Assembly: GCA_050012475.1 (NCBI GenBank)
Contig: JBEKHC010000001.1
Coordinates: 32,001-96,000, forward strand
Reading direction: 5' to 3'
DNA: 64,000 nucleotides
DNA from: Candidatus Velthaea sp.
GTDB taxonomy: Bacteria; Vulcanimicrobiota; Vulcanimicrobiia; Vulcanimicrobiales; Vulcanimicrobiaceae
The translations under genes and the position numbers were made by a program. Shown in pieces: positions 544 to 64,000 of the stretch. The stretch's first letter is position 1. The number at the start of each line of letters is the position of its first letter. Under the pieces are notes generated by a model. That model did no database searches. It was not told where the DNA came from and saw only the letters and a program-made list of their open reading frames with translations.

Positions 544-2358
544 TCAGGGATTCGAGGGTGTTTGCGGGTCGCCGGCCAGCGGAAGTTGGGGAAAGCCCAG
601 AAAATTGCGCGCGTACGGCGTGCCGACGCCGATGATCGGATTATAACCGCGGGTCCCGGCGGGAACCGTGACGACGCCGTTGTTGCCGGGGATGCCCTGG
701 TGGAAGAAGCGGAACGGAAAGTTTCGCGGCAGCGCGTCGTTCGCCGCCGCCAACTCGTAGATGTAGGCGTTGGCGTTGCCCATGCGGGTGCGCGTCGCAC
801 CTATTTCGAGTGCCAGCAATCCGGCGAATTCCGGCGCGGACAGACTCGTCCCGATCGCCCCGGCAAAGGAGCCACCGAAGGCAACGATCGACGAACTATC
901 GCCAACGTTGCACGAAAGCGCACCAAACGGACAGCCACCCATCTGCATCGAGATATCCGGCACGGTGCGTCGATTGGAATGTGTGTCGACCAGGAACTGG
1001 TACCACGGTTTGCGCCAGATCGCGCTCGCACCGCTGCCGGAGCCCCAATAACCGCCCGGCACGGCTGTCGGTATCGACGAATCCCCGATGGCTGGGGCGA
1101 GCGGATCGCCGAACGCGTTTTCCGCGACGTATTGCGAGCGCAGCGGTCTGCCTGGCGTGGCCGTCGTCGTTTGGAGATTGGTGCCGCCGACGGCTGTGAC
1201 GGCAGGGTCCGACGCCGGAAAGTTGACCGACGGAACGTATTGTGCGTTGGGATCGCCGTTGAAGAACGAGGGGCTCAGACATGCCAAACCGCCCGAATCC
1301 CCGGATGATGCGACGAACGAAATCCCTTGTGCGTTGCCCTGCTCGAAGATCTCATGGAAGGCCCGGAGGATATCGGTTTCGTCGCCGAAGTACGCCGCGG
1401 TATAGTACAGTTCGCAACTCTCGAACGAACTGCTCAACACGTCGACGTAATTCTCTTCGACGACGTCGATATAGGCGCCGATCGTCGAGTCGTCGCCGAG
1501 ATCCGGAATGTTGTAGAGCGAGATTTCAGCACCCGGCGCGCTCCCGATGGCCGTTTGCACGTCGACGCTGGCCTCGAATGACGTATTGCTCAGCGGATCG
1601 AACGGTGCGCCGCCGAAGAGCACGACCCGCCGCAGCGGTTTGAGCGCCTTGCCCGAGATCTGATGAAATCGTTCGTGGTCGAATATGGCCTGCGTGTCTG
1701 AATCGAGCACGTCCGACGCCATGAGAACGCCGATCTTCGCGCCTTTGCCGTCGAGGCTGCGATCCGAGGGGTACGTGTAGGCTTCCTTGAGATCGTCGAA
1801 CCAATATTCCCCGTAGGGCCCATTGCGGCTTTGCGGCGCGCGGTGCGCATCGACGTGAAAGTGAACGCGCGGCTCGAGCCCGGTCACCGCGGCACCCAGC
1901 GCAGTCAATTCCGGCGGCACGGTAAGCGGCACCATGCCGCCGACGTGCGGAACTCCGCGCGCGTCGCGCCTGATGCCGAGTTGGGTTTGAAAGGTCCGCT
2001 CAACCGCCGCGGCCGGCCCGCTCACTTCCAAGCTCAGCGAGGTCTGGCGAACCACCTGCAGACCCCGCGCGCGCAGCGCCGCAGCGGCGCGAGCGAACAT
2101 GGCGGGCGTGGGGCCGAATGCGGCGCGAAATTGCGCCACGCTCAGGAAGTGCCGATAGAGTGGAGAATGCGGATCGCCTTGCTCGCCGATGAGCGATTCG
2201 AGCTGAGCTTCGTCGCGCAACGGCAGGTGAACGCTGAACGTCACGCTCTGCGTCGCTTGGGGATGCTGCACCATGGGGACGGCGGTTGCGCTTGCCGGCA
2301 GCGTCGTGATGAAGAGCGTCGCGATCAGTGCGGCTGCGGCAACAAACGGCGTTCCCAT
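544..2358 (-). CDS. Secreted S53 (sedolisin/kumamolisin) serine protease with pro-domain
   Basis: Signal peptide, pro-kumamolisin motif (SPLYRHFLS), catalytic E-x3-D (EASVD), SSGDSG, GTSLSAP; ATG 2358 after GAGG. Confidence 0.9.
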   Translation of the reverse strand: MGTPFVAAAALIATLFITTLPASATAVPMVQHPQATQSVTFSVHLPLRDEAQLESLIGEQGDPHSPLYRHFLSVAQFRAAFGPTPAMFARAAAALRARGLQVVRQTSLSLEVSGPAAAVERTFQTQLGIRRDARGVPHVGGMVPLTVPPELTALGAAVTGLEPRVHFHVDAHRAPQSRNGPYGEYWFDDLKEAYTYPSDRSLDGKGAKIGVLMASDVLDSDTQAIFDHERFHQISGKALKPLRRVVLFGGAPFDPLSNTSFEASVDVQTAIGSAPGAEISLYNIPDLGDDSTIGAYIDVVEENYVDVLSSSFESCELYYTAAYFGDETDILRAFHEIFEQGNAQGISFVASSGDSGGLACLSPSFFNGDPNAQYVPSVNFPASDPAVTAVGGTNLQTTTATPGRPLRSQYVAENAFGDPLAPAIGDSSIPTAVPGGYWGSGSGASAIWRKPWYQFLVDTHSNRRTVPDISMQMGGCPFGALSCNVGDSSSIVAFGGSFAGAIGTSLSAPEFAGLLALEIGATRTRMGNANAYIYELAAANDALPRNFPFRFFHQGIPGNNGVVTVPAGTRGYNPIIGVGTPYARNFLGFPQLPLAGDPQTPSNP

Positions 2359-2625
2359 GCAAGTGCCTCTCGACCGGCGGCGTGACGTGCGCAATCGAAT
2401 CCGCGCGCGCCGGCTACTTCAAGGCTTTGCCGCCGGCCCGCCCGCAAGCCTTGTCGAGCGCACGAGCTCGAACAAAGCTTTACAGCGCAAACGTGACAGC
2501 GCGCATTTCGAAACGAAAAACGCGCCATCTCGGATTCGGGCTTCGCGTCTTGCGTCCTTGGCAAGCGAACCTAGCCTTCGGGTAGCAGCCTGTGCCGTGC
2601 CGGCACTCGGGGTTCCGGCACCAGT

Positions 2626-2799: not shown

Positions 2800-4641
2800 C
2801 TAAGGGTTCGAGATGGTCTGCGGATCGCCGGCGAGCGAAAACTGCGGGACGCCGATGAAGTTCTGCGCATACGGCGTTCCGACGCCGACGATCGGATTGT
2901 AACCGCGCGTGCCGGCCGGCACGTGAACGATGCCGTTGTAGCCCGGAATTCCCTGATGGTAGAAGTGCGTCGGGAAGCTGGGGGGAAGAGCATCGTTGGC
3001 TTGCGCGAGTTCGTAAATGTAGCCGTTCACGTTGCCCAGCCGCTGATGCGTCGCGCCGATCTTGACAGCGAGCAAACCGGCGAATTCGGGCGATGAAAGG
3101 CTCGTGCCGACCACCCCGGTAACGCTGCCGTCGAAATAGAATACTCCGTAACTGTCGCTCGAACGGCAACTGGCATCAAGCGAGATGTTCGGACAGCCGC
3201 CCATGTGCATCGAGATATCCGGCACGGCGCGGCGGGTCGTGCCGGTCTTGACCAGATACTGGTACCACGGCTTCTGCCAGTAGGCGCTGGTGCCGCTGCC
3301 CGAGCCAAAGTATCCGCCCGACACAATGGGACCCAGACCGAATGGATCGTATTTGACTTCCGCATTCGCGAATTCGGACTCCGCCACGTAGCGCGATCGC
3401 AAGATCGGAGGGTTCGGCTGCGGGCTCGGCGGCGTCGTTGTTTTGAGATTCGTGCCGCCGACGCCGGTGACGTCCGGGTCGCTGGCCGGCGTTTCGACAC
3501 CGGGGAGGAACGTGGCCGTCGGACCGCCGGTTAGGTACGAAACAGACACCGCGCCAAGCCCCGCGCTATCGCCTGACGATGCGAGAAAGGTGATGCCCTG
3601 GGCGTTACCCTGCTGGAAGAGTTGATGGTACACCTTCAGAATGCCGGAAACGTCGATCCCGCCGTTATATGGCGCCGTGTAATCCAACTCGAACTCCCCG
3701 AAGGACATGCTCAACACATCGACCGCATTGCTTTCGACGACTTGAACGAGACCGGCAATGATCGACGCATCGCTGAGATCCGGGATATTGTAGAGATCGA
3801 TCTGGGCGCCTGGCGCGCTACCCTGCGAAGACTGCACGTCGATGCTGGCTTCGAGTGAGCCGGTGCTGTTGGGGTCAAACGGTGCTCCGCCAAAAACCGG
3901 GAAGCGTTGCAAGGGCAGCGGTGTCTTGCCGGAAATCGCCGTGTACTTTTCTTGATCGAAGGTGGCCCGCGTATCGGAGTCGAGGACGTCGGAACTGATC
4001 AAAACGCCGACCGTCGCGCCTTTGCCGTCCAATGCCCGATCGGACGGGTAGGTGTAGGCCTGCTTGAGATCGTCGAACCAGTACGGTCCGACAGCCGAGT
4101 AGCGATTGAGCGGCACCGCTCGCGAGTCGACGTGCATGCGCACGCGCGAATCGAGGCCGGTGACGACGGCACCGAGCGCGGTCAATTCCGCCGGCATGCT
4201 CAGCGGCGCGACGCTGGCGACGCGCCGAAAACCGGCGGCATCCCGCACGATGCCCAACCGGGTGCCGAAGGTTTTTTCGACGTTCGCACTGGTGCCGCTC
4301 ACCCGCAAGCTCGCCGTGGTTTGACCGGCGATCGTCAGTCCGCGCGCGCGAAGCGCCGCAGCGGCCCGCGCTGCGGTCTGCGGCAACGGACCGAAACTGG
4401 CGCGAAATTGCGCGGGGCTGAGGAAGTGGTGGTAGAGCGGCGAGGTCCGGTCGCCCTGCAATTGGACGAGCTGTTCGAGCTGCGCTTCGTTGCGCAGCGG
4501 AAAGTGGACGCTGAAGCTCACGTTTTGCGCCGGGGCGGGAACGCCCACCACGGCTGTCTGCGCCGCCGATGTCAGCAGCGGTGCGGTCAACAACACAGCA
4601 CCGAACGCCGCTCCGCTGAGAAACGAGCTTGTCATCCCCAC
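2800..4641 (-). CDS. Secreted S53 sedolisin-family protease, tandem paralog
   Basis: EASID, SSGDSAG, GTSLSSP motifs; clearly similar to 544..2358; start GTG 4641 or ATG 4635. Confidence 0.9.
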   Translation of the reverse strand: MGMTSSFLSGAAFGAVLLTAPLLTSAAQTAVVGVPAPAQNVSFSVHFPLRNEAQLEQLVQLQGDRTSPLYHHFLSPAQFRASFGPLPQTAARAAAALRARGLTIAGQTTASLRVSGTSANVEKTFGTRLGIVRDAAGFRRVASVAPLSMPAELTALGAVVTGLDSRVRMHVDSRAVPLNRYSAVGPYWFDDLKQAYTYPSDRALDGKGATVGVLISSDVLDSDTRATFDQEKYTAISGKTPLPLQRFPVFGGAPFDPNSTGSLEASIDVQSSQGSAPGAQIDLYNIPDLSDASIIAGLVQVVESNAVDVLSMSFGEFELDYTAPYNGGIDVSGILKVYHQLFQQGNAQGITFLASSGDSAGLGAVSVSYLTGGPTATFLPGVETPASDPDVTGVGGTNLKTTTPPSPQPNPPILRSRYVAESEFANAEVKYDPFGLGPIVSGGYFGSGSGTSAYWQKPWYQYLVKTGTTRRAVPDISMHMGGCPNISLDASCRSSDSYGVFYFDGSVTGVVGTSLSSPEFAGLLAVKIGATHQRLGNVNGYIYELAQANDALPPSFPTHFYHQGIPGYNGIVHVPAGTRGYNPIVGVGTPYAQNFIGVPQFSLAGDPQTISNP

Positions 4642-4914: not shown

Positions 4915-7764
4915 TCAGCGCCCGGTGTGAAGCCGGATCTGGACGCGAACCGTGCGTGCCGGTGCTGAAACGAGCGTGGGAACGTATGACGTCTGGCTGC
5001 CCGTCGACGTATTTGCGACCAGCGGCGCGCCCGCGTTGGGCGACGCGAGATACGACGCGTTGCTGTAGACGTTGGTGTTGAGCAGGTTCTCGACGCCCAC
5101 GAGCATCTCGACCGAGGACGTCACGGGAGCACGGAAGGTGAAGTCGACCAGCGCGAACGGCGGCTGAAAATAACTGTTGTTCTTGCCTTCGTACTCGACG
5201 CCCAGGCCCAGGAACGACCCGCCGCGCGTCGTGTAGTTGATCTGACCGTAACCTTTGAGATAGGGCAGACAGGTCGCGATGCCGGGCGCCGCCACGCCGT
5301 TGCCGCAGATCTGGACGCCGTTGGCGGGAACGTTCGCTACGAACGGCCCGATGCCCAGCGGCACGCCGTCGAGGATCGAGCGGTTTGCTGCGACGGCAGC
5401 ATTGAGGCCGAAACCGGTGCGCGGCGCATACGAATACCGCAACGTGGCGAGTTCGGTGCGCAGCCGCCCAACGTTGATCGGGGTGAAGATGCCCTCGAGG
5501 CCGCCGCCGGCGATCGTCGCGCTGCTCGTGAGCTGTTCAAACACGTTGTGAATGACGCCGTCCTGCAGATCGAGGCTGAGCACGGAGCTGTTCCCGAAAC
5601 GCTTATCGGCGCCGATATTGTACGACGTGCTCACCTCGGGTTCGAGGTTCGGATTCTTCTGTGTCAGCGTTCCGCCCGAAGCGAAGGGCGGTCCGAGCGA
5701 CGCCGCCGGCTGTTCGTACGTTGCCAGACCGCTGACTTGGCCGACGAACGGGAACGTCGCCGAGCTGCCGACCGCAGCGCGGTACGAAACATCGCCCGTC
5801 GGACGGAACGTCAACGCGAAATGGGGATCGAAACGCGAAACGCTGCGGTCGAGTCCCGTCAAGCTGGTATCGGTCGGCGAGTTCGGATGCAGGCGCTGCA
5901 CGCCGGCGACTTTCCAGAGTGTATCGTACAGGCCGATGTTCACCCCGACGTTCTTGAACGGCGCCAGCGCGCTGGTCAGCGAGAACGTCGAGAAGCGATC
6001 GGTCGAGAATGGGACGGAGATGTCGGCCGGCGAGTTGATGTAGGCGAACGTGCTTTCGCCGTGATAGTCGTACGAGAGATTGACTAAGTTGTTGCCGAAC
6101 GGATGCAGAATCGAAAACGTGGTGCCGTAGAGTTTATCCTGCTCGTACGTTTGATACGCCGAGTTGAAGCATTCGATTTGCCCGTTCTTGATGACCGTGG
6201 CCCCCGAGGGACTCGTCAAGTTTCCGAAGATATCGTTGCAGGCCGTGGTGAACGCGGCGAGCGCCGCGGGATTGGTCGCCGCCCCGACCGGCGAGAAGAA
6301 GGCCGGATACGATGCTTGCGTATCGCCGCCGGTGATGACCTCCGGTTCGATGTCGCCGATATACGGCCGGATCAGCAGCGTGTTGTTGCCCAGCGTCGTG
6401 CGCAGCTGCGCATCGTACAGCCATTGGTTGTTGTAGACCGACGATCCGGTATACCAGCCGTAGGCGTTGATGGTCTTGCCGATCAGACTCGCGTTGGTGG
6501 GGTTGGTGCACTTATTGGGACTGTCGGCGTCCGTTGCGCTCGATGCGGGAAGACACGGCAGGATCGTCGTCGCGCCCAGATACGTGCCCCAGGCAGTGCC
6601 CTGCGGCTGATAGCCGCCCCACGCGCCGGTAAAACCGACGTCGAACGACGTTGCCGCCGAAAAGTTATAACGCGCTTTGAGCAATTCGCCTTTGCTGAAG
6701 AACGAGCCGCTCGCATCGCCGCAATACTGGATGACGCCGGTGTTGCCGGGGACGTTGTCGTTGGCGCCCCCGAAGCTCGGCGTGACGACGCACTTGTTCG
6801 TTTGGTAGTACGGTCCGTTGATGCTGCTGACACCGGCTCCGGCGACGACTTGCAGCTTGGCCGCTGAGCCGGTCACCAGAAAATTCGAATACTGCGACTG
6901 ATAGTTGTCGATGCCGTAGGTGATCTCGGCCGTTGGACGCGTGGTGAAGTTCGGGGTGAGGATGTTGACGGTGCCGCCGACGGCGATGTTGGCGAACGGC
7001 GTGGTGTTACCCGGACCGGACTGCGTCTCGAGCCCGCCGATGAGATACGACGGAAAATACTGGCTCGTCCAGACGCCGTACTGCCCCAGCGCGAGCGGGT
7101 GGCCGTCGATGAGCACCTGCGTCTCGTAGGGCTGAACGCCGCCGAGCACGATCGACACGTCCGGTTGACTGCCCATGTGCTGCAAGGTGACGTCGGGGAC
7201 GCGCTCGAGCACGTTGTTGATCTGCGGGTTGGCGACGTTGGCGAAGGCCTGCGCCGGCACGAACGACGACGATGCGGCGCCGGTGTTGATCGCGCTTCCG
7301 CCGCCGCGCGACGTCGCCGAAACCGAGCCGATCGTCCGCAGCGACGAAAGGTTGAGGACGTTGAGCGTCACGGCAACCGGCACGGTCGTGCCGCCGACCG
7401 CGACGATGTTCGACAGGACCGCGGGATTGTAGCCTGATTGCCGCACGGTGAGCGTGTAGATGCCTTGCGGGACGGTCAGCGTGAACGCACCGTTCGCATC
7501 GGTCGTCGCGCTCGACGTCGCCGGTCCGCTGAGCCTCACGCTGGCGCCGGAGACCGGAAGCCCGGTTCCGCTGCGGACCGAGCCCTGCAGCACGGTGTTG
7601 GTGGCTTCGGCAGCGGCGGCCGGAGCCGGAGGCGCACTTTGGGCTGGTGCCGGTGCCGTCGGCACGGGAGCTGTCTGAGCGGCCGCGCCGCTCGTCACCG
7701 ATGCGGCACTAAGAAGTGCAAAGGCGGCTCTACGCAAGCCGTCCCGGAGACCCAAGAACCCCAT
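4915..7764 (-). CDS. TonB-dependent receptor with N-terminal carboxypeptidase-regulatory-like domain
   Basis: Signal peptide, GSV..G.PV.GA.V.L domain, plug (VLIDGHP; GGTVNI), barrel motifs NPNLEPE and ENLLN; ATG 7764 after AGGAG. Confidence 0.88.
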   Translation of the reverse strand: MGFLGLRDGLRRAAFALLSAASVTSGAAAQTAPVPTAPAPAQSAPPAPAAAAEATNTVLQGSVRSGTGLPVSGASVRLSGPATSSATTDANGAFTLTVPQGIYTLTVRQSGYNPAVLSNIVAVGGTTVPVAVTLNVLNLSSLRTIGSVSATSRGGGSAINTGAASSSFVPAQAFANVANPQINNVLERVPDVTLQHMGSQPDVSIVLGGVQPYETQVLIDGHPLALGQYGVWTSQYFPSYLIGGLETQSGPGNTTPFANIAVGGTVNILTPNFTTRPTAEITYGIDNYQSQYSNFLVTGSAAKLQVVAGAGVSSINGPYYQTNKCVVTPSFGGANDNVPGNTGVIQYCGDASGSFFSKGELLKARYNFSAATSFDVGFTGAWGGYQPQGTAWGTYLGATTILPCLPASSATDADSPNKCTNPTNASLIGKTINAYGWYTGSSVYNNQWLYDAQLRTTLGNNTLLIRPYIGDIEPEVITGGDTQASYPAFFSPVGAATNPAALAAFTTACNDIFGNLTSPSGATVIKNGQIECFNSAYQTYEQDKLYGTTFSILHPFGNNLVNLSYDYHGESTFAYINSPADISVPFSTDRFSTFSLTSALAPFKNVGVNIGLYDTLWKVAGVQRLHPNSPTDTSLTGLDRSVSRFDPHFALTFRPTGDVSYRAAVGSSATFPFVGQVSGLATYEQPAASLGPPFASGGTLTQKNPNLEPEVSTSYNIGADKRFGNSSVLSLDLQDGVIHNVFEQLTSSATIAGGGLEGIFTPINVGRLRTELATLRYSYAPRTGFGLNAAVAANRSILDGVPLGIGPFVANVPANGVQICGNGVAAPGIATCLPYLKGYGQINYTTRGGSFLGLGVEYEGKNNSYFQPPFALVDFTFRAPVTSSVEMLVGVENLLNTNVYSNASYLASPNAGAPLVANTSTGSQTSYVPTLVSAPARTVRVQIRLHTGR

Positions 7765-7963
7765 AGAACTCCTACTCGCGGATTGCCGGCGCTCCATACC
7801 GTCACGGCGAACGTGCGACTGCGCGCCGGCTACGTGGCGTCGTTAAGCATACGCGAGCGATCTTCTTTGGACAAACAGTGAACCGCCGGGAGAGCGGCGA
7901 GTCGCCTTGGTCGGCACCGGGCATTCGGTGGGTGATTGCTGGCGGACCTGCGAACATAGGGAT

Positions 7964-39622: not shown

Positions 39623-39682
39623 TAAGGCTTCTTTGTCAACTCTCCGATACAAGCCGTACGGCGCTCGTAAAGCGTCGGTAAA
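39623..39682 (+). promoter_or_regulatory. Sigma28-type promoter plus GTAAA-N6-GTAAA direct repeat
   Basis: TAAG-N16-TCCGATAC (39623-39650); gtaaagcgtcggtaaa (39667-39682). Confidence 0.5.
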
Positions 39683-39706: not shown

Positions 39707-40879
39707 ATGCCAGTCTCGCCAGCCCGCTCCCACGTCGCACGCCTTGCAGCGTTTACTCTGGCCGCCGGCTTGACCGCCTGCGGCGGGGGCGGCGGCAGCG
39801 CCGCGCTGAGCCCGGCTCTTCGTCCGGCGTCCAGTGCCCTGGGCGCGCTGGCGCCGACGGGTGCAGCGCGCTACTCGCTCGGGTTGGTCAACGCGGCTCC
39901 GGCGGAGATCGCGCAAATGCCGCACATCCGGCACGAGCTCTCGCTCACGACGCTTCCGGCGGCTGTCGATCTCTCGGCGAAAATGCCCGCAGTCGGATAC
40001 CAGGGCCAAGAAGGTTCGTGCGTCGGTTGGGCGACCGCGTATGCGATGCGCGGCTATGAGGCGCGTCAGGACGTGTGGTCGAGCATCGCGCCGCAAAGCA
40101 CCGATCCGGCGGTGAATTTCAGTCCGGCATTCGTTTATAACCAACTCGACGGCGGCAAGGACGCCGGCATTTCCATTCCCGCGGCCCTCGCCTTGATGCA
40201 GCAACGGGGCGCCGCAACGTTAGCCGACATGCCGTATGTTGCCGGCCAGTACAAAACGCAGCCGTCCGCCGCAGCGTTTGGCGACGCCGCGCACTATAAA
40301 GTGTCCTCGTTCGGCAGCATCGCTCCGAGCGACCTGACGTCGATGAAAGCGCAGGTCGCCGCCGGCATCCCGGTGATGCTGGCGATCAAAGTCTACGCCA
40401 ACCTCTACGCGCTGGGCGCGAACCAAGTCTACACGGGCATCGCGGGGACCTACGAAGGCGGACATGCAGTTTCGGTCGTCGGCTACGACGACGCGAAGCA
40501 GGCCGCCAAATTCATCAACTCCTGGGGCACGTCGTGGGGCACGGCGGGATACGGCTGGATCAGCTATGCAGCGTTGAATCAAATTACGGTCGAAGCCTAT
40601 TCGGCCATCGACGATCATGGTGCGCCCAAGCCGGTCGCTACCGTAGCGCCGGCGACACCGCGGCTGGCAACGACGCCCACACCGGCACCCAAGCCCAAAG
40701 TGACGCCGGCGCCGACGCCCAAACCCAAAACGACGCTGACGCCGAAGCCGGCCCCCAAGCCGACGGCAATCGCGAAGCCGACGCCGAAGCCAGCCCCCAA
40801 GCCCACGGCAACCGCGAAGCCGAAGCCGGCGCCGACCTCGTCGCCCAAACCGAAGGCAAGCGCGACGCCGCACGGCTAA
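39707..40879 (+). CDS. C1 (papain-like) cysteine protease lipoprotein with Pro/Lys/Thr-rich tail
   Basis: Lipobox [32 protein letters not shown]. Confidence 0.9.
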   Translation: MPVSPARSHVARLAAFTLAAGLTACGGGGGSAALSPALRPASSALGALAPTGAARYSLGLVNAAPAEIAQMPHIRHELSLTTLPAAVDLSAKMPAVGYQGQEGSCVGWATAYAMRGYEARQDVWSSIAPQSTDPAVNFSPAFVYNQLDGGKDAGISIPAALALMQQRGAATLADMPYVAGQYKTQPSAAAFGDAAHYKVSSFGSIAPSDLTSMKAQVAAGIPVMLAIKVYANLYALGANQVYTGIAGTYEGGHAVSVVGYDDAKQAAKFINSWGTSWGTAGYGWISYAALNQITVEAYSAIDDHGAPKPVATVAPATPRLATTPTPAPKPKVTPAPTPKPKTTLTPKPAPKPTAIAKPTPKPAPKPTATAKPKPAPTSSPKPKASATPHG

Positions 40880-44120: not shown

Positions 44121-44148
44121 ACTTTTGCTTGGAGAGCCTTACATTACA

Positions 44149-45624
44149 ATGCGATCGTCCTTCACTCGATCAGCGATAGCGCGCTGCGCCGTGTTTGCCC
44201 TGGCCGGGAATCTCGCGGCCTGCGGCGGAGGCGGCGCCAGCAGCACGATCGCTCCTGCGCGCTCGAGCACCGTACCGTCCGCAGCGAACCGATTCTCGTT
44301 GGGCCTCGTCGCCGCGAAGCCGGCGGAAATCGCGCAAATGACGCACATCCGGCATCTGCTCAGCGTCACGACGTTACCCGCCGCGGTCGATTTGTCCGCG
44401 AAAATGCCGAGCGTGGGCGATCAGGGACAAGAAGGTTCGTGCGTCGCGTGGGCTTCCGCATATGCGATGCGCGGCTATGAAGCGCGCCAAGACGTCTGGG
44501 CCGCGATCGCTCCGAAGAGCACGGATCCGACGCTCAATTTCAGCGCGTCATTCATTTACAATCAGCTCAACGGCGGTCAGGATGCCGGCATCTCGATTCC
44601 CGCGGCGTTGAACCTCATGGAGCAAAAGGGAGCCGCGACGCTGGCGGACATGCCGTATGTGGCGGGCCAATTTACCACGCAACCCTCCGCTGCCGCTTTG
44701 AGCGACGCGACGCACTTCAAGCTCTCGTCGTACGGTTACATCGCGCCGACGGATTTCACGTCGATGAAAGGCCAACTCGCGGCCGGTATTCCCGTCATCC
44801 TCGCGATCCAGGTGTACAGCAACTTTTTCGGGCTCGGCCAAAATCAAGTGTACACCGGCGCCGCCGGAACGTACGAAGGCGGCCACGCGATCGCGGCCGT
44901 CGGCTATGACGATTCGAAACAGGCGGTCGAAATCATCAACTCATGGGGACCGTACTGGGGAACCGCGGGCTATGGTTGGATCAGCTATACTGCGTTGAGC
45001 CAAATCGGGCTCGAAGCGTATTCGGCGATCGACGACCACGGTGCACCACCAGCACCCGTTCCCAGCCCCACACCGACCGCGACCCCGGCGCCGTCCCCAA
45101 CCGCAACCGCCAAACCGTCGCCGACGCCGAGCACGACGCCAACCCCATCGCCGTCACCGACCGCGACGCCGAAACCGTCGCCGACACCGACGTCGACGCC
45201 GACCGCGACGCCGAAACCGTCGCCGACACCGACACCGACGCCGAAACCGTCGCCGACGCCGACACCGACGCCGGTTCCGACCGCGACGCCCAAACCGTCG
45301 CCGACTCCGACGCTCAAGCCGTCACCGACACCGACGCCCAAGCCGTCGCCGACACCGACGCCCAAGCCGTCGCCGACACCGACGCCCAAGCCGTCGCCCA
45401 CCGCGACACCGAAACCGTTACCCACCGCGACACCGAAGTCATCGCCGACCGCGATCCCCAAGTCGTCGCCGACCGTGACGCCCAAACCAGCGCCGACGGC
45501 AACGCACAAACCAACGGCGCCGCGCAAACCCTCACCGACGCCCAAACCTTCGGCGAAACCGACCGCCGAAGCGTCGAGTACTCCACACCCCTCACCGTCT
45601 CCGGCGGCGGCATCCGGCCGGTAA
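44149..45624 (+). CDS. C1 cysteine protease lipoprotein paralog with long Pro/Thr/Ser/Lys tail
   Basis: Lipobox [28 protein letters not shown]; tail of about 190 aa. Confidence 0.9.
45061..45600 (+). repeat. Coding tandem repeats (TPKPSPT(P/A))n
   Basis: 24-nt unit ccgacgcccaagccgtcgccgaca and variants. Confidence 0.85.
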
Positions 45625-45671: not shown

Positions 45672-45682
45672 CCATGCAACGG

Positions 45683-45789
45683 GCGACTTGGGCGAAGCCC
45701 GAACCTGCGACAGCGGCTTGGGCGAAGCCTAGACTGCGACGGCGGCTTCGGCGCAGCCGAAACGCGAGGGGTCCAGCGAAGCTGAACCC
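45683..45789. repeat. REP-like tandem ~30-bp units with GCGAAGC/GCGCAGC cores
   Basis: gcgacttgggcgaagcccgaacctgcgaca / gcggcttgggcgaagcctagactgcgacg / gcggcttcggcgcagccgaaacgcga; similar to the reverse complement of the 58.1 kb units. Confidence 0.75.
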
Positions 45790-58026: not shown

Positions 58027-58210
58027 GGGTGAAGCGGACTTACGTCCGCTTCACCCGTGGCGTTTTCGGGCTTCGCCCAAAGCCGCGGGTGTCGCTTTGG
58101 CCTGCACCATAAGCCGCGGTGGCGTTTTGGGCTTCGCCCAAAGCCGCGGGTGGCGTTTGGCGGTGCGCGCCGTGCCGCGGGTGGCGTTTGGCGGTGCGCG
58201 CCGAGCCGAG
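58027..58210. repeat. 13-bp hairpin plus five tandem ~30-32 bp REP-like units
   Basis: gggtgaagcggac-ttac-gtccgcttcaccc, then units of the form gt(g/t)(g/c)cg..ttt-[inner stem]-gccg(c/a)g, e.g. gtggcgttttgggcttcgcccaaagccgcgg. Confidence 0.8.
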
Positions 58211-58396: not shown

Positions 58397-58423
58397 TAAG
58401 TTCTTGCCCTGCTCCGCCGATAT
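58397..58423 (+). promoter_or_regulatory. Sigma28 (FliA/SigD/WhiG)-type promoter
   Basis: TAAG-N15-GCCGATAT, near the TAAA-N15-GCCGAT(A/T) consensus, 54 nt before ATG 58478. Confidence 0.7.
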
Positions 58424-58477
58424 CAGTCAGTGAGTCCTTACTCGTACTGACAACTCAAGCTTCCGCCAGGAGAACCC

Positions 58478-59080
58478 ATGAATCTTAACCTTATCGCTCG
58501 TTTTGGCGTCCTCGTCGCCATCGTTGCCTTGCCGGCGTGCAGCGGCGGCGGAGTGAGCACGTCGAGCGCCGCCCCCCTTTCCGCGGTCATTCCGCAAACC
58601 CAGAGCGTCAAGCTCAAGTCCGAGAGCCTGCGCAGCGACATCGTTTCAAAGGTGTCGACAAGCAGCTTGCGCAGCGACGTCATCGCACCCGCCACGGCGA
58701 AGGTGTCGACGAGCAGCTTGCGCAGCGACGTCATCGCACCCGCCACGTCGAAGGTGTCGACGAGCAGCTTGCGCAGCGACGTCATCGCACCCGCCACGTC
58801 GAAGGTGTCGACGAGCAGCTTGCGCAGCGACATCGTTTCAAAGGTGTCGACGAGCAGCTTACGCAGCGACGTCGTCTCAAAGGTGTCGACGAGCAGCTTG
58901 CGCAGCGACGTCGTCCCCGCCAAGGCGACTGCGGCGGCCCATGCCTCCAGTCTTCGCCTCGTCGTCCCGGGCCCGGGTCCGAAAGCTGGCCCGAAGAGCC
59001 TGCGCAGTGACATCGTCAAGGCGAATACGTCCAGCGTTCGCTTAGGCGGCAGAATGGCCGTCGACCCCGATCATCGCTGA
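58478..59080 (+). CDS. Secreted lipoprotein with 8 SLRSD(I/V)(V/I) repeats (candidate multi-copy peptide precursor)
   Basis: AGGAG RBS; signal peptide with LPAC-SGGG lipobox; six KVSTSSLRSD units in 39/51-nt DNA repeats. Confidence 0.8.
   Translation: MNLNLIARFGVLVAIVALPACSGGGVSTSSAAPLSAVIPQTQSVKLKSESLRSDIVSKVSTSSLRSDVIAPATAKVSTSSLRSDVIAPATSKVSTSSLRSDVIAPATSKVSTSSLRSDIVSKVSTSSLRSDVVSKVSTSSLRSDVVPAKATAAAHASSLRLVVPGPGPKAGPKSLRSDIVKANTSSVRLGGRMAVDPDHR
58624..58915 (+). repeat. Coding tandem repeat, 30-nt core plus 9- or 21-nt linker
   Basis: aaggtgtcgacgagcagcttgcgcagcgac followed by atcgtttca/gtcgtctca or gtcatcgcacccgccacg(g/t)cg. Confidence 0.9.
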
Positions 59081-59121
59081 CGGTGTACCGAAAGACAACT
59101 CTGAAAGGATAAGGAGGAGAG

Positions 59122-62100
59122 ATGCGCGCTGTTAGTCGTTCGCCACGTTCGACGATCTGGCAGCGCGCTGCCCTCGTTCGTAACTTCGTCGAACTGCTGT
59201 CGACTCAAGCACCCGCCGGAGATGTCTGGTCGATGTGCTGTGAGCCGATCGCCAACCTCATGGAAGCCCGCGGCGTCTCGATCGTCTTTTGCGAAGAGAG
59301 CGGGGACCGCGTTGCTTGTCAGATGGTCGACGGCGTTGCGACTTTTCCCAAGGAGACCGGGTTGGCGCCCCACTCGCTTGCCGCCGACGTCATCGCCGCG
59401 AATGCTACCGTGATCCGCGAACGCCCGGACCCGACCCAAACCTCGATCGGCGTTCCAATTCGTTTCGGGACAGCGTTGCTGGGTGCGATCTGTGTGGAAA
59501 ACGCCGTTCGTCCCGATCGGGAACTCATTACCCTGCTTGAATCGTGCGCGCTTTCGGCGGGCGCGCGGATCAATACCGACGCGATGGTCGACAATACGGC
59601 GCGCTACGAGCGGCTCGCATTCACCGATGCGCTGACCGGGATTGCGAATCGCCGTCGATTCGACGAAACGCTCGCCCTCGAGTGGTCGCGGGCCGCACGC
59701 AGCGGTTCGTCGTTGACTTTGTTGATGATGGACGTCGACCATTTCAAGCTGTACAACGATGCGTACGGTCATCCGGCGGGCGACGTCTGTCTCAAACACA
59801 TCGCGAGCGCGATCAAAGAGAGTACTCAGCGCTCTGCCGACCTCGGTGCCCGCTACGGTGGCGAAGAGTTCGTTGCGCTTTTGCCCGGGGTCGATCTCGA
59901 AGGCGGAACGCGCGTCGGCGAGGCGCTGCAACTCAACGTCGCAACCCGCGACATCGCGCACAGCGGGTCGTCGTTGTCGCGCGTTTCGCTTAGCATCGGC
60001 GTTGCCTCGATGGTCCCCAGCTTCGACAGCCGCTGCGACGTGCTGCTCACGGCGGCTGATGCGGCGCTGTACGAAGCTAAGCGCAGCGGCCGCAATCGCG
60101 TTTTCGCGGTCGGGTACACGCCGCCGGTTCAGCCGCAGCCGGCGCTCGTGCGCAATGTCGCGGCGCTCAACAACCTGCCCCAACAGCATACGCGCTTGAT
60201 CGGCCGCGTAACCGAAGTCTCCGAGATCATCGAACTCCTCGAGGAGTCGCCGCTGGTCACGCTTCAGGCCTGCGGAGGTGCCGGCAAGACCCGCATCAGC
60301 GTCGCGATCGCAACCGAGATGAGTGCCGCGTTCCCGGATGGTACGTGGTTCGTGGATCTTGCCCGGGTGACCGATCCGGCCCTCATCCCCGGAACGATCG
60401 GTTCGCTTTTCCGGCTCGAGATCACACCGGGTGCAAACGCCGCTGGTTCGCTTGCACGAGCGCTCGCCGCCAAGAACACGCTGCTCGTCTTCGACAACTG
60501 CGAACACGTTCTCGAGGCGACTGCCGAAGTCGCCACGGCGTTATTGCAGACGTGCGGCGGCGTGCGGATCCTGGCGACGAGCCGGGAGCCCTTGGGTATC
60601 CGCGGCGAGACCATCTACCGGTTACCGCTCCTCGCGGTTCCGCCGTTGGACGCTCCGCTCGATGCCGAGAGAGCCACCGGCTACGAGGCCGTCGCGCTGT
60701 TCGTCGAACGAGCCAAGGCGGCGAAGCGTGATTTTCGCCTCACCGACGAGAACGCCGCCATCGTCGGCGCGATCGTTCGTCAGCTCGACGGGATTGCGTT
60801 GGCAATCGAACTCGCCGCCGCGCGCGTCAGCGTCATCAGCGTCGGCGAGATTGCCAAACGTTTGGGCGAACGCTTTCGGTTGCTCAAGGGCGGCGACCGA
60901 ACGGCATTGCCCCGGCAGCAGACGATGCGCGCGCTCATCGATTGGAGCTACGATCTGCTCTCGCTCGAGGAGCAGCTCGTCTTCCGCCGGTTGTCGGTTT
61001 TCGTCGGTGGCTGGACGCTCGAGGCGATGAGCGAGATTTGCGCCGGCGGTGAACTCGACGAAGACGACGTATTCGATTTGCTCGGCGGCCTCGTCCGCAA
61101 GTCGCTCGTCGTCGATACGATCGACGACTCGACGAGCCGCTATCGCCTATTGGAGTCGGTGCGTGAGTACGCCGGCGAGAAGCTCGATGCTGAAGCGGAG
61201 AGCGACGACCTGCACCGCCGTCACGCGCACTACTACCTCGTGCTGGCCGAAGCCGCGAAGTCGACGTACTACACGACGGCCTCGAAACAGTGGCTGCTCA
61301 AGTTTCTTCCGGAGTGGGAGAATTTCCGCGGCGCGCTGCACTGGTCGCTGGCTCTGGGCAAGGATATCAAGCTCGGGGCGACGCTGGCTGGTGCGCTCGT
61401 GATGTTCTTGTCCCACGTTTCACCCAATGAGAGCCTCCGCTGGACACGCATGGCGCTGGCGCGCTTGCCGGCCGACAGCGAACCCGCGATCGAAGCCGCC
61501 CTATGGTACGGCGTCGGGCGAGCCGCCGAAAATCTGCCTGCCGACCAAATGCGCGCCGCTGCCGAACGCGCCGTCGCGCTTGCGCGCGTCGCCGGCAATC
61601 AACAGTTGCTGGGTGAAGCGCTGCGTCGGCTCATGGTCGTCCTGGGCTGGTATTATCCCGAAGAACAGGCGTTCACCGCGGCCCTGGGGCAAGAAGCCAT
61701 CGAGTCGGCGCGCGCCTTGGGCGAGCCGATCGAAATCGCGCTGGCCCTGCGCAGTTTGAGCGTCTCAATCGATAACTCCGATGTCGCGCGCAAGCTGGCC
61801 GTTCTCGAAGAGAGCCTGACCCTGCTCTTGGCGCACGGCAACGATTTACAAACTGCCGTGGCCTTCATGTGGCTGGCTGAGTATGATTTCTGCTTCGGCG
61901 GAGCGCTCAAGGCTACGAGCTACGCCCGCGAAGCGATGCGGTCCGCCGAAGAATCGGGCTCGGGCAGCATGCTCGCTCAGATGGCCACGAACCTAGCCCA
62001 GTACGCAGCCGCCGAAGGCGACTGGGCAGCCACGCGCAAGGCGGCTGCCAACGCCGCCGAAGCCGCCGGTCAGCTCGGCATGGACGATCAGGTCACCTGG

Positions 62101-62367
62101 GCGATACAAGCACTGGCGATCGCGAGCGCCGGGGCCGGCGATTGCCAAACGGCCGCGCGGCTTCTGGGCTTTTGCGATAGCCGAACCGGTACGCTGCACA
62201 GTCAGCGCCAGGTGAACGGCGCCGAAGACATCTTGTATCGCCGGTTGCTGGCAACGCTCAAAGAAGAGCTTGACCCAGCGGTGATGGATGCTGAAATGAA
62301 GTGCGGCGTGGGTCTCACCGAAACCGAGGCGGTCCAGGCCGGACTCGCCGTCGCCCTAGCGGCCTGA
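59122..62367 (+). CDS. GAF - GGDEF diguanylate cyclase - STAND/NB-ARC-like ATPase - wHTH - TPR-like protein
   Basis: TDALTGIANRR, DVDHFK, RSAD I-site, RYGGEEF; NNLP, GGAGKT, LVFDNCEH, LDGIALAIELAAAR, IDWSYDLL, LVRKSLV; helical C-terminus; AAGGAGG RBS. Confidence 0.92.
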   Translation: MRAVSRSPRSTIWQRAALVRNFVELLSTQAPAGDVWSMCCEPIANLMEARGVSIVFCEESGDRVACQMVDGVATFPKETGLAPHSLAADVIAANATVIRERPDPTQTSIGVPIRFGTALLGAICVENAVRPDRELITLLESCALSAGARINTDAMVDNTARYERLAFTDALTGIANRRRFDETLALEWSRAARSGSSLTLLMMDVDHFKLYNDAYGHPAGDVCLKHIASAIKESTQRSADLGARYGGEEFVALLPGVDLEGGTRVGEALQLNVATRDIAHSGSSLSRVSLSIGVASMVPSFDSRCDVLLTAADAALYEAKRSGRNRVFAVGYTPPVQPQPALVRNVAALNNLPQQHTRLIGRVTEVSEIIELLEESPLVTLQACGGAGKTRISVAIATEMSAAFPDGTWFVDLARVTDPALIPGTIGSLFRLEITPGANAAGSLARALAAKNTLLVFDNCEHVLEATAEVATALLQTCGGVRILATSREPLGIRGETIYRLPLLAVPPLDAPLDAERATGYEAVALFVERAKAAKRDFRLTDENAAIVGAIVRQLDGIALAIELAAARVSVISVGEIAKRLGERFRLLKGGDRTALPRQQTMRALIDWSYDLLSLEEQLVFRRLSVFVGGWTLEAMSEICAGGELDEDDVFDLLGGLVRKSLVVDTIDDSTSRYRLLESVREYAGEKLDAEAESDDLHRRHAHYYLVLAEAAKSTYYTTASKQWLLKFLPEWENFRGALHWSLALGKDIKLGATLAGALVMFLSHVSPNESLRWTRMALARLPADSEPAIEAALWYGVGRAAENLPADQMRAAAERAVALARVAGNQQLLGEALRRLMVVLGWYYPEEQAFTAALGQEAIESARALGEPIEIALALRSLSVSIDNSDVARKLAVLEESLTLLLAHGNDLQTAVAFMWLAEYDFCFGGALKATSYAREAMRSAEESGSGSMLAQMATNLAQYAAAEGDWAATRKAAANAAEAAGQLGMDDQVTWAIQALAIASAGAGDCQTAARLLGFCDSRTGTLHSQRQVNGAEDILYRRLLATLKEELDPAVMDAEMKCGVGLTETEAVQAGLAVALAA

Positions 62368-62378
62368 AACGTTCGCCG

Positions 62379-64000
62379 TTAGACCGCGCGCACGTCGGGT
62401 GCCAGCGGCGGATCGAACGGCGCGCCGTTGCGATAGCGTGCCAACTCAATTGCGCTCAGCGCAACCGAGGCATGCGCGACCACCCGCGCGAGGTGTTCGC
62501 GTTCTTCGGGATCGAGATCCAGCCCGCTGACGTTGTGACCGTACATCACGATGCCCAGCACGGCCCGGTCGAAAAAGATCGGCGCGGCGAACGTGAGCCG
62601 CTCACCGGGAAATGCGCGGGCGATGATCCCGCTGTCCTTACTGCTGAAGCTCAATGCGCCGCGCGTACGCGTGAGCTTGCGGGTCAATTCGTCGTCGGCC
62701 GCCAACCGGGTGATGCAGTCGCTGGGCCAGTTGTGCTCGTACGATAAAGCGTAGTCGCCGGAGGGAAGCCGGGCGAGAAAGCCGCCGAAAGAAAGCTGCA
62801 GCGCGTGCGCGGCGTCGGCAAGCAGTGCCCGGTACACGTCGTCGCGCGCTTCGGCGTCGAGAATGTATCCCTCGATGAGTTCGAGCGCCCGGCGCTGATC
62901 GCGCCGGTTACGGAAAATGAAACGATCGACGACGTGCTGCAGAATCGGATTGATCTTGCCGGTCGCCGCTCCGATTCCCATCGACAGTAAAATGATGAAC
63001 CCGTACGCGACGTCGGTGTTGTTATAGAATACGTAGGTGCCGACTTCTTCGATGACGCTCACCGTCCCGAACGCGGCGGCGGTCAGAGCGACGTACACGA
63101 TCGCGCGGCTCACGACGAAGTCGACATTGAAGAAACGCTGCCGCAACACTGCAATCCCGACGCCGACGATCGGCACGATCGTCGCCGACACGAGGATACC
63201 GTTGACCCAGGGCGGTATCCAGCGCGGGAACAGTTCGTCCGAAGCCAGCCGCGCGGCCGCCGCGAAAAGGAACGTCGCAACGATCCAAACGATGCGCTGC
63301 CGCTCGATCCCGCGCGCGCGTACGAACGCGATCACGAACGTGACCGTGGTGAGCACGGTCAGGACGTCGGCGGCGGTCGTCGAGAAACGGCCGATACGAC
63401 CCGCCGGCTCACCGGCGTAGGTGAGCAGCCACGCGCCGTACGCGTCGACCGTTCCCAACGCCAGCGCGGTCGCCGCGCAAAGCAGCGCGAAGACGCGCTC
63501 GCGCCGCGCGTCGGCGTCGCCGTCGATCAAGCACAGCGCAAAGAGCAAGAGCGCCGGACGCGCAGCACCGCGAAGCGTGTCCCCGAACCATTGCGGAATC
63601 GGCCGCCAGGGGTTGGGAACGATGAGATCCAGATACGTCGTGGGCGCTTCGGCGCCTAAACAAAAGACCAAGAACGCTGCCGTCGCGATGCCGGGCTTGA
63701 CCAAAAAGAGAATCGCGCCGATCGCGATCGAAATGATGAAGATGGTGATGCGCAAGACGGCGAAGAACCGGCTCGCGGGCGACTCGGGCCGCGCGACGAG
63801 ATGCAGCACCTGAACTCGTCCGTTTCGCTCGACCGGCAAGAACCGGTCGGGGTTGTCATACGTGAAGCCGACGCCCGCGAGCCCGGGCTTGCGATCGTAG
63901 GGCTTGATCCGATCGATCCGCACGCGATCGTGGATGGCGATACGGTCGGGCCGCGACGGCTGCTGCTTGTCGTTTTTGGATCGCGGTCGCGCGGGGCTGC
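62379..64000 (-). CDS. Multi-TM membrane protein with C-terminal GAF-like domain (5' end outside the window)
   Basis: Frame open to the window edge; RGIERQRIVW, FNVDFVVSRAIVY, VDRFIFR motifs; GAF-like end GLDLDPEEREHL. Confidence 0.75.
   Translation of the reverse strand, partial: SPARPRSKNDKQQPSRPDRIAIHDRVRIDRIKPYDRKPGLAGVGFTYDNPDRFLPVERNGRVQVLHLVARPESPASRFFAVLRITIFIISIAIGAILFLVKPGIATAAFLVFCLGAEAPTTYLDLIVPNPWRPIPQWFGDTLRGAARPALLLFALCLIDGDADARRERVFALLCAATALALGTVDAYGAWLLTYAGEPAGRIGRFSTTAADVLTVLTTVTFVIAFVRARGIERQRIVWIVATFLFAAAARLASDELFPRWIPPWVNGILVSATIVPIVGVGIAVLRQRFFNVDFVVSRAIVYVALTAAAFGTVSVIEEVGTYVFYNNTDVAYGFIILLSMGIGAATGKINPILQHVVDRFIFRNRRDQRRALELIEGYILDAEARDDVYRALLADAAHALQLSFGGFLARLPSGDYALSYEHNWPSDCITRLAADDELTRKLTRTRGALSFSSKDSGIIARAFPGERLTFAAPIFFDRAVLGIVMYGHNVSGLDLDPEEREHLARVVAHASVALSAIELARYRNGAPFDPPLAPDVRAV

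Follow-up and report, generated by a model that had tools for sequence, protein, structure and literature searches.

The lipoprotein-cyclase locus

The stretch of DNA analysed here, called the window, comprises 64,000 nucleotides (nt) of a Candidatus Velthaea genome (G000:C1:32001-96000, G000 being the source genome). On its forward strand it carries a gene for a 200-amino acid (aa) repeat lipoprotein and, directly behind it, a gene for a 1081-aa protein combining GAF, GGDEF, STAND and TPR-like regions. The biofilm messenger cyclic di-GMP (c-di-GMP) would here be made by a switch-like cyclase encoded behind the gene of an exported repeat protein. The original prediction for this locus was that heptapeptides cut from the lipoprotein are re-imported and switch on the cyclase. 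The gene pair is real and unusual. The signalling interpretation is a minority reading, and the link between lipoprotein and cyclase is unproven, since most cyclase relatives have no such neighbour. The features of the unit are as follows.

58397..58423, + strand: sigma28 (FliA)-type promoter, TAAG-N15-GCCGATAT, a motif enriched genome-wide and also found 5' of flagellin genes
58478..59080, + strand: gene for the 200-aa repeat lipoprotein, a candidate multi-core precursor (leader, motif, homologs)
58478..58540, + strand: predicted signal peptide with lipobox L-P-A-C21 (hydrophobic leader; motif-based call)
58625..59053, + strand: ten S[LV]R motifs, 12-18 aa apart, starting at 58625, 58664, 58715, 58766, 58817, 58856, 58895, 58949, 58997 and 59033
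58649..58915, + strand: recent tandem DNA duplications, 51 bp x3.6 and 39 bp x2.9
59111..59119, + strand: strong ribosome-binding site of the cyclase gene, within the 41-nt gap
59122..62367, + strand: GAF-GGDEF-STAND-TPR protein, 1081 aa
59617..60099, + strand: GGDEF domain with RSAD I-site (aa 237-240) and GGEEF (aa 246-250)
60154..61221, + strand: STAND NTPase with helical and winged-helix domains (Walker A/B; fold match PH0952, then Apaf-1)
61264..62364, + strand: all-helical arm and TPR-like sensor (AlphaFold 2, AF2, model)

The sigma28-like promoter of the original prediction stands. TAA-N17-CCGATA occurs at 20 sites in the genome (17 intergenic) and TAA-N18-CCGATA at 19 (15 intergenic), against just 3-10 sites each (1-5 intergenic) for ten other spacers. 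The N17/18 motif precedes two flagellin genes, and FliA is present in the genome (FliA/WhiG profile above cut-off). The site at 58397 is, on its sequence, a credible sigma28 promoter. The gap of 41 nt to the next ATG, on the same strand, contains no terminator-like site, and the lipoprotein and cyclase genes are likely to be co-transcribed. One RNA-library contig covers 58992-59547 and bridges both genes, with possible DNA carry-over, and another begins its cover of the lipoprotein gene at 58448, just 3' of the promoter. The RNA data come as contigs from two runs of a single study, without a silent-stretch control; they give a hint of expression, short of proof for a single transcript. One of the runs (X12) also contained a minor contig (depth <5) with a changed letter at 58646 and altered repeat joints at 58836-59003, possibly from a strain with a different repeat layout.

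The best matches of the cyclase are from Eremiobacterota, the top one being a Candidatus Velthaea record (L003), and near-identical DNA is present in peat, soil and wetland metagenomes. BamA, LpxC and LspA are all encoded in the source genome, which therefore belongs to a diderm cell with lipoprotein processing; LolA was not detected in a search of this genome (94% complete).

The repeat lipoprotein and its motif

The coordinates and counts given earlier for the lipoprotein hold: the 200-aa protein has 8 copies of SLRSD(I/V)(V/I) plus the variants SLRLVV and SVRLGG. It is the only open reading frame (ORF) with at least two SLRSD(I/V)(V/I) copies among the 73,031 six-frame ORFs of the genome, and the densest repeat carrier among its 2,503 secreted-like ORFs. 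Ten of the 12 arginines of the mature protein lie inside [SNG][LV]R, whereas 2,000 shuffles gave 0.7 on average and never more than 4, the pattern having been picked after the sequences had been inspected. The leucine codon of the motif differs synonymously among the copies (CTG, TTG, TTA, CTT), and the GC content at third codon positions is 0.82. Residues A17, L18, P19, A20 and C21 are unchanged in all six aligned family members, and the protein is probably lipidated, as judged from this motif.

It was also correct that the protein has no recognisable folded domain. No family match was found in Pfam or NCBIfam, and the AF2 model has a predicted local distance difference test (pLDDT) score of 39 and no confident fold; across the tandem copies it shows short strands scoring about 51. 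A search of the ESM Atlas with the lipoprotein gave scores only up to 0.80. A beta-solenoid or amyloid reading was not adopted, because the motif spacing is 10-36 aa and prolines are many, and the resemblance that x[SN][LV]Rx bears to pentapeptide repeats was set aside because the copies are non-contiguous.

The claim of a constant core between variable spacers was right in one part only. Six consecutive copies sit in the 51-bp (98% match) and 39-bp (94% match) tandem arrays and all have the KVSTS lead-in, so that the constant core within this gene is mostly recent duplication. The same gene is 183, 136 and 123 aa long in other assemblies, with differences of whole units, which may be real variation or assembly collapse. 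The motif is retained at the protein level in 36-49%-identical homologs whose spacers are unrelated.

These homologs came from searches of 5.8 billion and 1.84 billion proteins, and they make up a small metagenomic family of seven sequences (the window protein, P0002, P0007, P0015, P0008, P0012 and the fragment P0010). Of the 9 matches, P0009, P0011 and P0013 were discarded as unrelated and P0006 is a fragment of the window gene itself. All have a leader that ends in ALPAC. The complete-looking homologs have 104-215 aa, and P0002 is 43% identical to the window lipoprotein. The arginines within [SNG][LV]R number 10/12, 7/9, 9/13, 9/12, 4/8, 2/5 and 0/1 per mature sequence, with shuffle means of 0.7 or less and a motif spacing of 10-36 aa. 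There are 41 motif copies across the seven sequences, 32 of them distinct. Lys or His stands three residues ahead of the motif in 16 of the 32; the residue after the arginine is S in 13, L in 8, A in 5, G in 4 and T in 2, and then follows D in 12. Residues following the arginine vary widely, even inside one precursor. The heptapeptide originally taken as the core is not borne out, as across homologs only [SN][LV]R is constant. The selected unit, read from these alignments, is [K/H]xx[S/N][L/V]R with a looser tail rather than SLRSDIV. By sequence the motif is real at the protein level in a fast-evolving protein, and the family is an unnamed lipoprotein family built on one linear motif. The source name of P0007 and P0015, 'pyridoxine 5'-phosphate oxidase superfamily', looks mis-annotated; P0007 has no Pfam match.

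Beyond these sequences the family was not met with. No precursor was found in 60 relatives. A search of 400 phylum genomes gave 45 weak matches (E 3.7e-5 or worse), nearly all across the leader region, and the lipoprotein ORFs listed for 29 of these loci have no such repeats. Three same-genus genomes contained no match to the lipoprotein profile better than E 0.005, and the genome contig collection gave two unrelated weak matches and one empty scan. A triple-core DNA pattern matched in 77 of 347 family genomes, with no precursor-like one, by eye, among the matches listed, and a metagenome scan returned the same organism only (L113). Arrays of an imperfect 17-bp tandem repeat were seen in several genomes from one related genus (L192, L204, L207, L208 and G145:C2:1136337-1136586). 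The motif was also considered as a general lipoprotein shedding site and rejected as such, being present in 3 of 64 lipoprotein tethers against 3.0 expected, in a list that includes some false lipoproteins.

It could be that the adjacency is incidental, with a slippage-inflated low-complexity lipoprotein lying by an unrelated cyclase and a motif of little specific function. The near-identical tandem DNA copies and the length variants of 123-200 aa would fit such a history, as would the rearranged upstream side of the cyclase ortholog in the same-genus genome G001. We regard it as very unlikely, as the motif is kept in the 36-49%-identical homologs among unrelated spacers and its leucine codons differ synonymously.

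The cyclase family and the weighing of explanations

The second gene agrees with its earlier description as a STAND-TPR cyclase with GGEEF and RxxD, 41 nt downstream; domains, motifs and the AF2 model all point the same way. The GGDEF domain matches PF00990 (E 8e-47) and TIGR00254 (E 3e-48), and the GAF and NB-ARC matches are weak. RSAD ends five residues ahead of GGEEF, and D204, N212, D213, H217, D221 and K320 are unchanged in 17 aligned relatives. With GGEEF, the metal/GTP residues and RxxD all present, the protein is by sequence an active diguanylate cyclase. The STAND motifs are Walker A ACGGAGKT, Walker B LLVFDNCE and ATSR, and the GxP position reads GIA. The AF2 model of aa 345-1081 (mean pLDDT 87) consists of the STAND module and a TPR-like solenoid, and as modelled it has the layout of a STAND-TPR NTPase: P-loop nucleotide-binding domain (NBD), helical domain, winged helix, arm and sensor. 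Its best fold match is PH0952 (6MFV; E 5.9e-14, template modelling score 0.48, 15% identity), with Apaf-1 next, and no RRNPP structure is among the best 50 fold ranks. Pfam TPR gave no match on the 1081-aa protein, and a sequence search of the PDB with the STAND and sensor part gave a single chance match. In PADLOC defence profiles 0 families were matched by the 3 proteins searched, the anti-phage STAND (Avs) profile included. When the sensor (aa 690-1081; alignment of 17 rows) was co-folded with aa 44-78 of the precursor, the score was 0.00, which is evidence neither way.

The receptor architecture is common and belongs to a widespread Eremiobacterota family. GGDEF-STAND matches (E 1e-60 or better) occur in 43 of 201 class genomes, at 60 places besides the window gene, a tally that takes in the genomes G195, G150 and G178. 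A pairing screen covered 58 of the 60 places (without G150 and G178, with G195), 80 genome-collection loci and 16 same-genus loci. It looked within 900 bp for an ORF of 40-330 aa with a hydrophobic leader that also has either a 4-mer occurring three times or three [SN][LV]R, so that one- or two-copy peptides would escape it. It flagged the gene of the window itself and two neighbours (L074 and L108) that are unrelated. A multi-motif secreted neighbour was found beside 0 of the 53 other distinct GGEEF-bearing GGDEF-STAND genes, for which at least 800 bp were available upstream in 51 and downstream in 36. RxxD is present in 51 of the 53. The 53 genes lend no support to a pairing that recurs in the phylum; one further pair is probable in a close relative. 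There are 13 close ortholog clusters with 62-83% identity in the sensor region, counting P0028 (738-744 aa), a STAND-sensor ortholog without GAF-GGDEF that is 62% identical in that region. A scan of viral contigs with the sensor motif gave 0 matches.

The closest ortholog in a genome, 66% identical, is that of G001 (same genus; 94% complete, 20 contigs). The same membrane gene lies downstream of it, an oxidoreductase gene is encoded divergently upstream, and a sigma28-type motif of its own directly precedes the start. No precursor was found in G001 within 20 kb, nor genome-wide with the family profile, and the supposed dependence of the receptor on a precursor does not extend to this ortholog. 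In the genome contig collection it is the sole other match of a sensor-specific pattern. A quick tree of 33 rows, 14 class genes among them, places it basal in the 15-row ortholog clade, and it differs at 17 of the 158 sensor columns in which the other 12 orthologs are all alike. In the same-genus ortholog at L003:4965-5003 a sigma28-type -10 box ends 7 nt 5' of the cyclase ATG, which suggests a leaderless transcript for that gene, on the sequence.

The source genome contains 12 other STAND matches, with HTH- or TIR-type heads or partial, and no such neighbour was seen among the matches listed. Beside three of these 12, all HTH-headed STAND-TPR genes (G000:C18:16577-19937, C78:20251-23714 and C29:13958-17201) a related exported protein of 139-154 aa, TonB-C-terminal-like by eye, is encoded divergently upstream, a recurring exported-protein/STAND pair in this genome.

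The explanation towards which we lean, tentatively, is that of a co-expressed envelope repeat protein displaying its motif multivalently beside a family-type STAND-gated cyclase that has another inducer. The sigma28-driven two-gene unit would belong to a motility or attachment programme. Gene 1 would be a lineage-restricted, lipid-anchored envelope protein whose flexible Ser/Ala/Val/Pro/Thr chain presents a short basic motif, [K/H]xx[S/N][L/V]Rx[D/S/E][I/V]V, many times over, and this array could bind surface polymers or partner proteins multivalently. Gene 2 would be an ordinary member of a STAND-gated diguanylate cyclase family that is widespread in Eremiobacterota. In the resting state the ADP-bound STAND module would be kept shut by the TPR sensor and the arm; an inducer would bring about ATP exchange, oligomerisation, pairing of the GGDEF domains and c-di-GMP synthesis, with RxxD feedback. 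Such a switch is suggested by analogy with MalT and PH0952, and the oligomer-driven GGDEF pairing by the same analogy together with general cyclase biochemistry. The inducer of MalT is maltotriose. Here the inducer would probably be common to relatives without a precursor, so the two genes would be co-expressed without the motif being a dedicated ligand of the TPR.

Several observations weigh against this explanation. The conserved core, the 10-36-aa spacers, the fast turnover and the lack of a fold have the look of multi-core propeptides; no envelope binding partner was identified, and other lipoprotein tethers have the motif no more often than expected (3/64 vs 3.0). Both families are similarly narrow: beyond G000, the genome contig collection holds one receptor ortholog and no lipoprotein homolog. 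Five of the 17 departures of G001 cluster at aa 802-810, which could be a lost pocket. In addition the pair probably recurs. The JGI contigs that carry the receptor ortholog P0034 (86% identical) and the lipoprotein homolog P0002 are both 10,901 bp in size, and from these equal sizes, not from DNA, the two are inferred to be neighbours. P0002 has no other contig, and about 0.011 chance matches are expected among 6 by 34 contig sizes (a rough estimate). The lipoprotein of this probable pair is down to 43% identity with its motif still kept, and in the quick tree the two linked receptors group within a single 5-row subclade that has 100% support in the Shimodaira-Hasegawa-like approximate likelihood ratio test. 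P0034 is just 14% diverged, and therefore the kept gene order is weak evidence of function.

The peptide-ligand circuit, with its core corrected, is accordingly to be set beside the envelope reading. The lipoprotein would be a multi-core propeptide; an exported protease would cut in or beside [K/H]xx[S/N][L/V]R, and short arginine-containing peptides would build up, enter via an Opp/Dpp-type transporter and bind the TPR sensor, whereupon oligomerisation of the STAND module would switch on c-di-GMP synthesis. For G001 it would follow that the signal gene was lost or that the ortholog predates its recruitment. The single promoter, the 41-nt gap without a terminator, the RNA contigs spanning 58992-59547 and starting at 58448, and the probable second pair in the same 5-row subclade are all consistent with it. 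So are the 41 motif copies in 7 sequences with most Arg restricted to the motif, the rank of the lipoprotein among the 2,503 secreted-like ORFs and three Opp/Dpp-type ATPase matches in the genome; duplicated cores are known from Phr (PMC11343458). On the other hand, such a neighbour is lacking at the 53 other family genes and in G001, and the lipid anchor and outer membrane would obstruct release and re-entry. The post-Arg residues vary widely, within one precursor too, and no RRNPP receptor appears among the best 50 fold ranks. For the second pair, gene order is often kept at 14% divergence. Only one of six precursor contig sizes was matched; the other five gave no match to a receptor contig, which says little because only the longest contigs were listed. 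We hold the circuit to be rather unlikely, and the same doubt attaches to its specific form, a recent recruitment in one subclade of the widespread cyclase family that would join RRNPP-like logic, an NLR-type (NOD-like receptor) switch and a second messenger. The envelope reading and the circuit are close in likelihood.

As maturases of such peptides two C1 proteases with the same promoter motif had been put forward. This motif marks 32 intergenic sites, and with about 30 further sites the C1 proteases are therefore not singled out. The C1 (papain-family) lipoprotein paralogs (window 39707-40879 and 44125-45624) are a close pair with Pro/Thr/Lys-rich repeat tails, and the sigma28-type motif lies 5' of both genes (near 39623 and 44062). 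Tandem S53 (kumamolisin-like) proteases (window 544-2394 and 2800-4641) lie beside a TonB-dependent receptor (4915-7797). The C1 and S53 proteases are genuine, and their sole tie to the lipoprotein is the common promoter motif.

Two further features flank the unit.

62379..64000, - strand: convergent multi-pass membrane protein with a GAF-like domain at its end, running beyond the window and kept beside the cyclase in G001
58057..58208, no strand: array of a 31-bp repeat resembling repetitive extragenic palindromes (REP-like), between the upstream ABC-2 transporter genes and the promoter, outside the unit

The membrane protein offers another target, as peptides from a multi-core precursor could reach their target without entering the cytoplasm, be it a membrane sensor like this one or other cells. 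The precursor-like anatomy would be explained equally, no re-import would be needed in a diderm, and the GAF protein adjoins the cyclase. Its extracytoplasmic part looks PDZ-like by eye only. This reading is improbable: the GAF neighbour is kept in G001, which has no precursor, and no modifying-enzyme or immunity gene is adjacent. Short intergenic REP-like arrays with periods of 24-31 bp occur in the window at 58057-58208, 45682-45767 and 2717-2767. An antisense 193-aa ORF was rejected as a gene, being a shadow frame without leader or homologs.

Relation to known systems

In open-access PMC and bioRxiv, as far as their text was available, no paper was found that describes a cyclase of the STAND-GGDEF type, a STAND that senses peptides in quorum sensing, or the lipoprotein family. 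The main text of PMC13581612 has no mention of GGDEF in its available part, and its STAND-clade supplements may include the cyclase family. If the circuit were true, a diderm bacterium would be using peptide quorum sensing with a receptor in its cytoplasm, which would be new. A bacterial STAND without an immune role would then have a ligand made by the cell itself, cell density would be coupled directly to c-di-GMP, and there would be a first testable inducer for a cyclase family present in about a fifth of the class genomes searched. Should the peptide reading fail, an unnamed one-motif lipoprotein family and an uncharacterised STAND-gated cyclase family would still be left, of moderate interest.

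The GAF-GGDEF-STAND-TPR proteins of Eremiobacterota (database name 'diguanylate cyclase') have the same architecture and GGEEF, and differ in that the repeat lipoprotein is found only beside the window gene (seen) and P0034 (inferred). Enterococcal sex pheromones are cut from lipoprotein signal peptides and are ligands for a cytoplasmic TPR receptor. There, too, a lipoprotein is the peptide source for such a receptor, but the pheromone is the leader's end, whereas the candidate cores here are part of the mature chain, and leader and receptor are conserved to about the same degree. The order NBD, helical domain, winged helix, arm and TPR is shared with PH0952 (6MFV), MalT (PMC6468293) and AfsR (10.64898/2026.09.02.748808). 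In PH0952 and MalT the nucleotide-binding domain is kept closed by the arm and the TPR sensor as long as no inducer is bound (PMC6468293). The present protein differs in its effector, an N-terminal GAF-GGDEF instead of a DNA-binding domain, and in an identity of 15%.

The closest comparison is with RRNPP(A) systems (Rap-Phr, NprR-NprX, PlcR-PapR, AimR-AimP). As in those, a small exported protein with a repeated core is encoded beside a cytoplasmic helical-repeat sensor, the genes are adjacent (here 41 nt apart on the same strand) and Opp/Dpp-type ATPases are present. The two sources give RRNPP propeptides of 10-100 aa (PMC10075063) or 50-120 aa with 1-4 copies (PMC11343458), exported by Sec and signal peptidase I (Sec/SPI), with Sec/SPII accepted at the 'relaxed' level only, and receptors of 250-500 aa. 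The present precursor has 200 aa with 8-10 copies and a lipobox LPAC (judged by motif) instead of Sec/SPI, and the receptor has 1081 aa with a STAND ATPase and a cyclase. The host is a diderm Eremiobacterota whereas those of RRNPP are Bacillota; the TPRs of RRNPP receptors have as their counterpart a TPR-like solenoid by model and fold match, without a Pfam TPR match; and most receptor relatives here have no propeptide. The pair could work like an RRNPP system, yet it is not a member of that group, from which it departs in propeptide size, leader type, receptor size and family-wide pairing.

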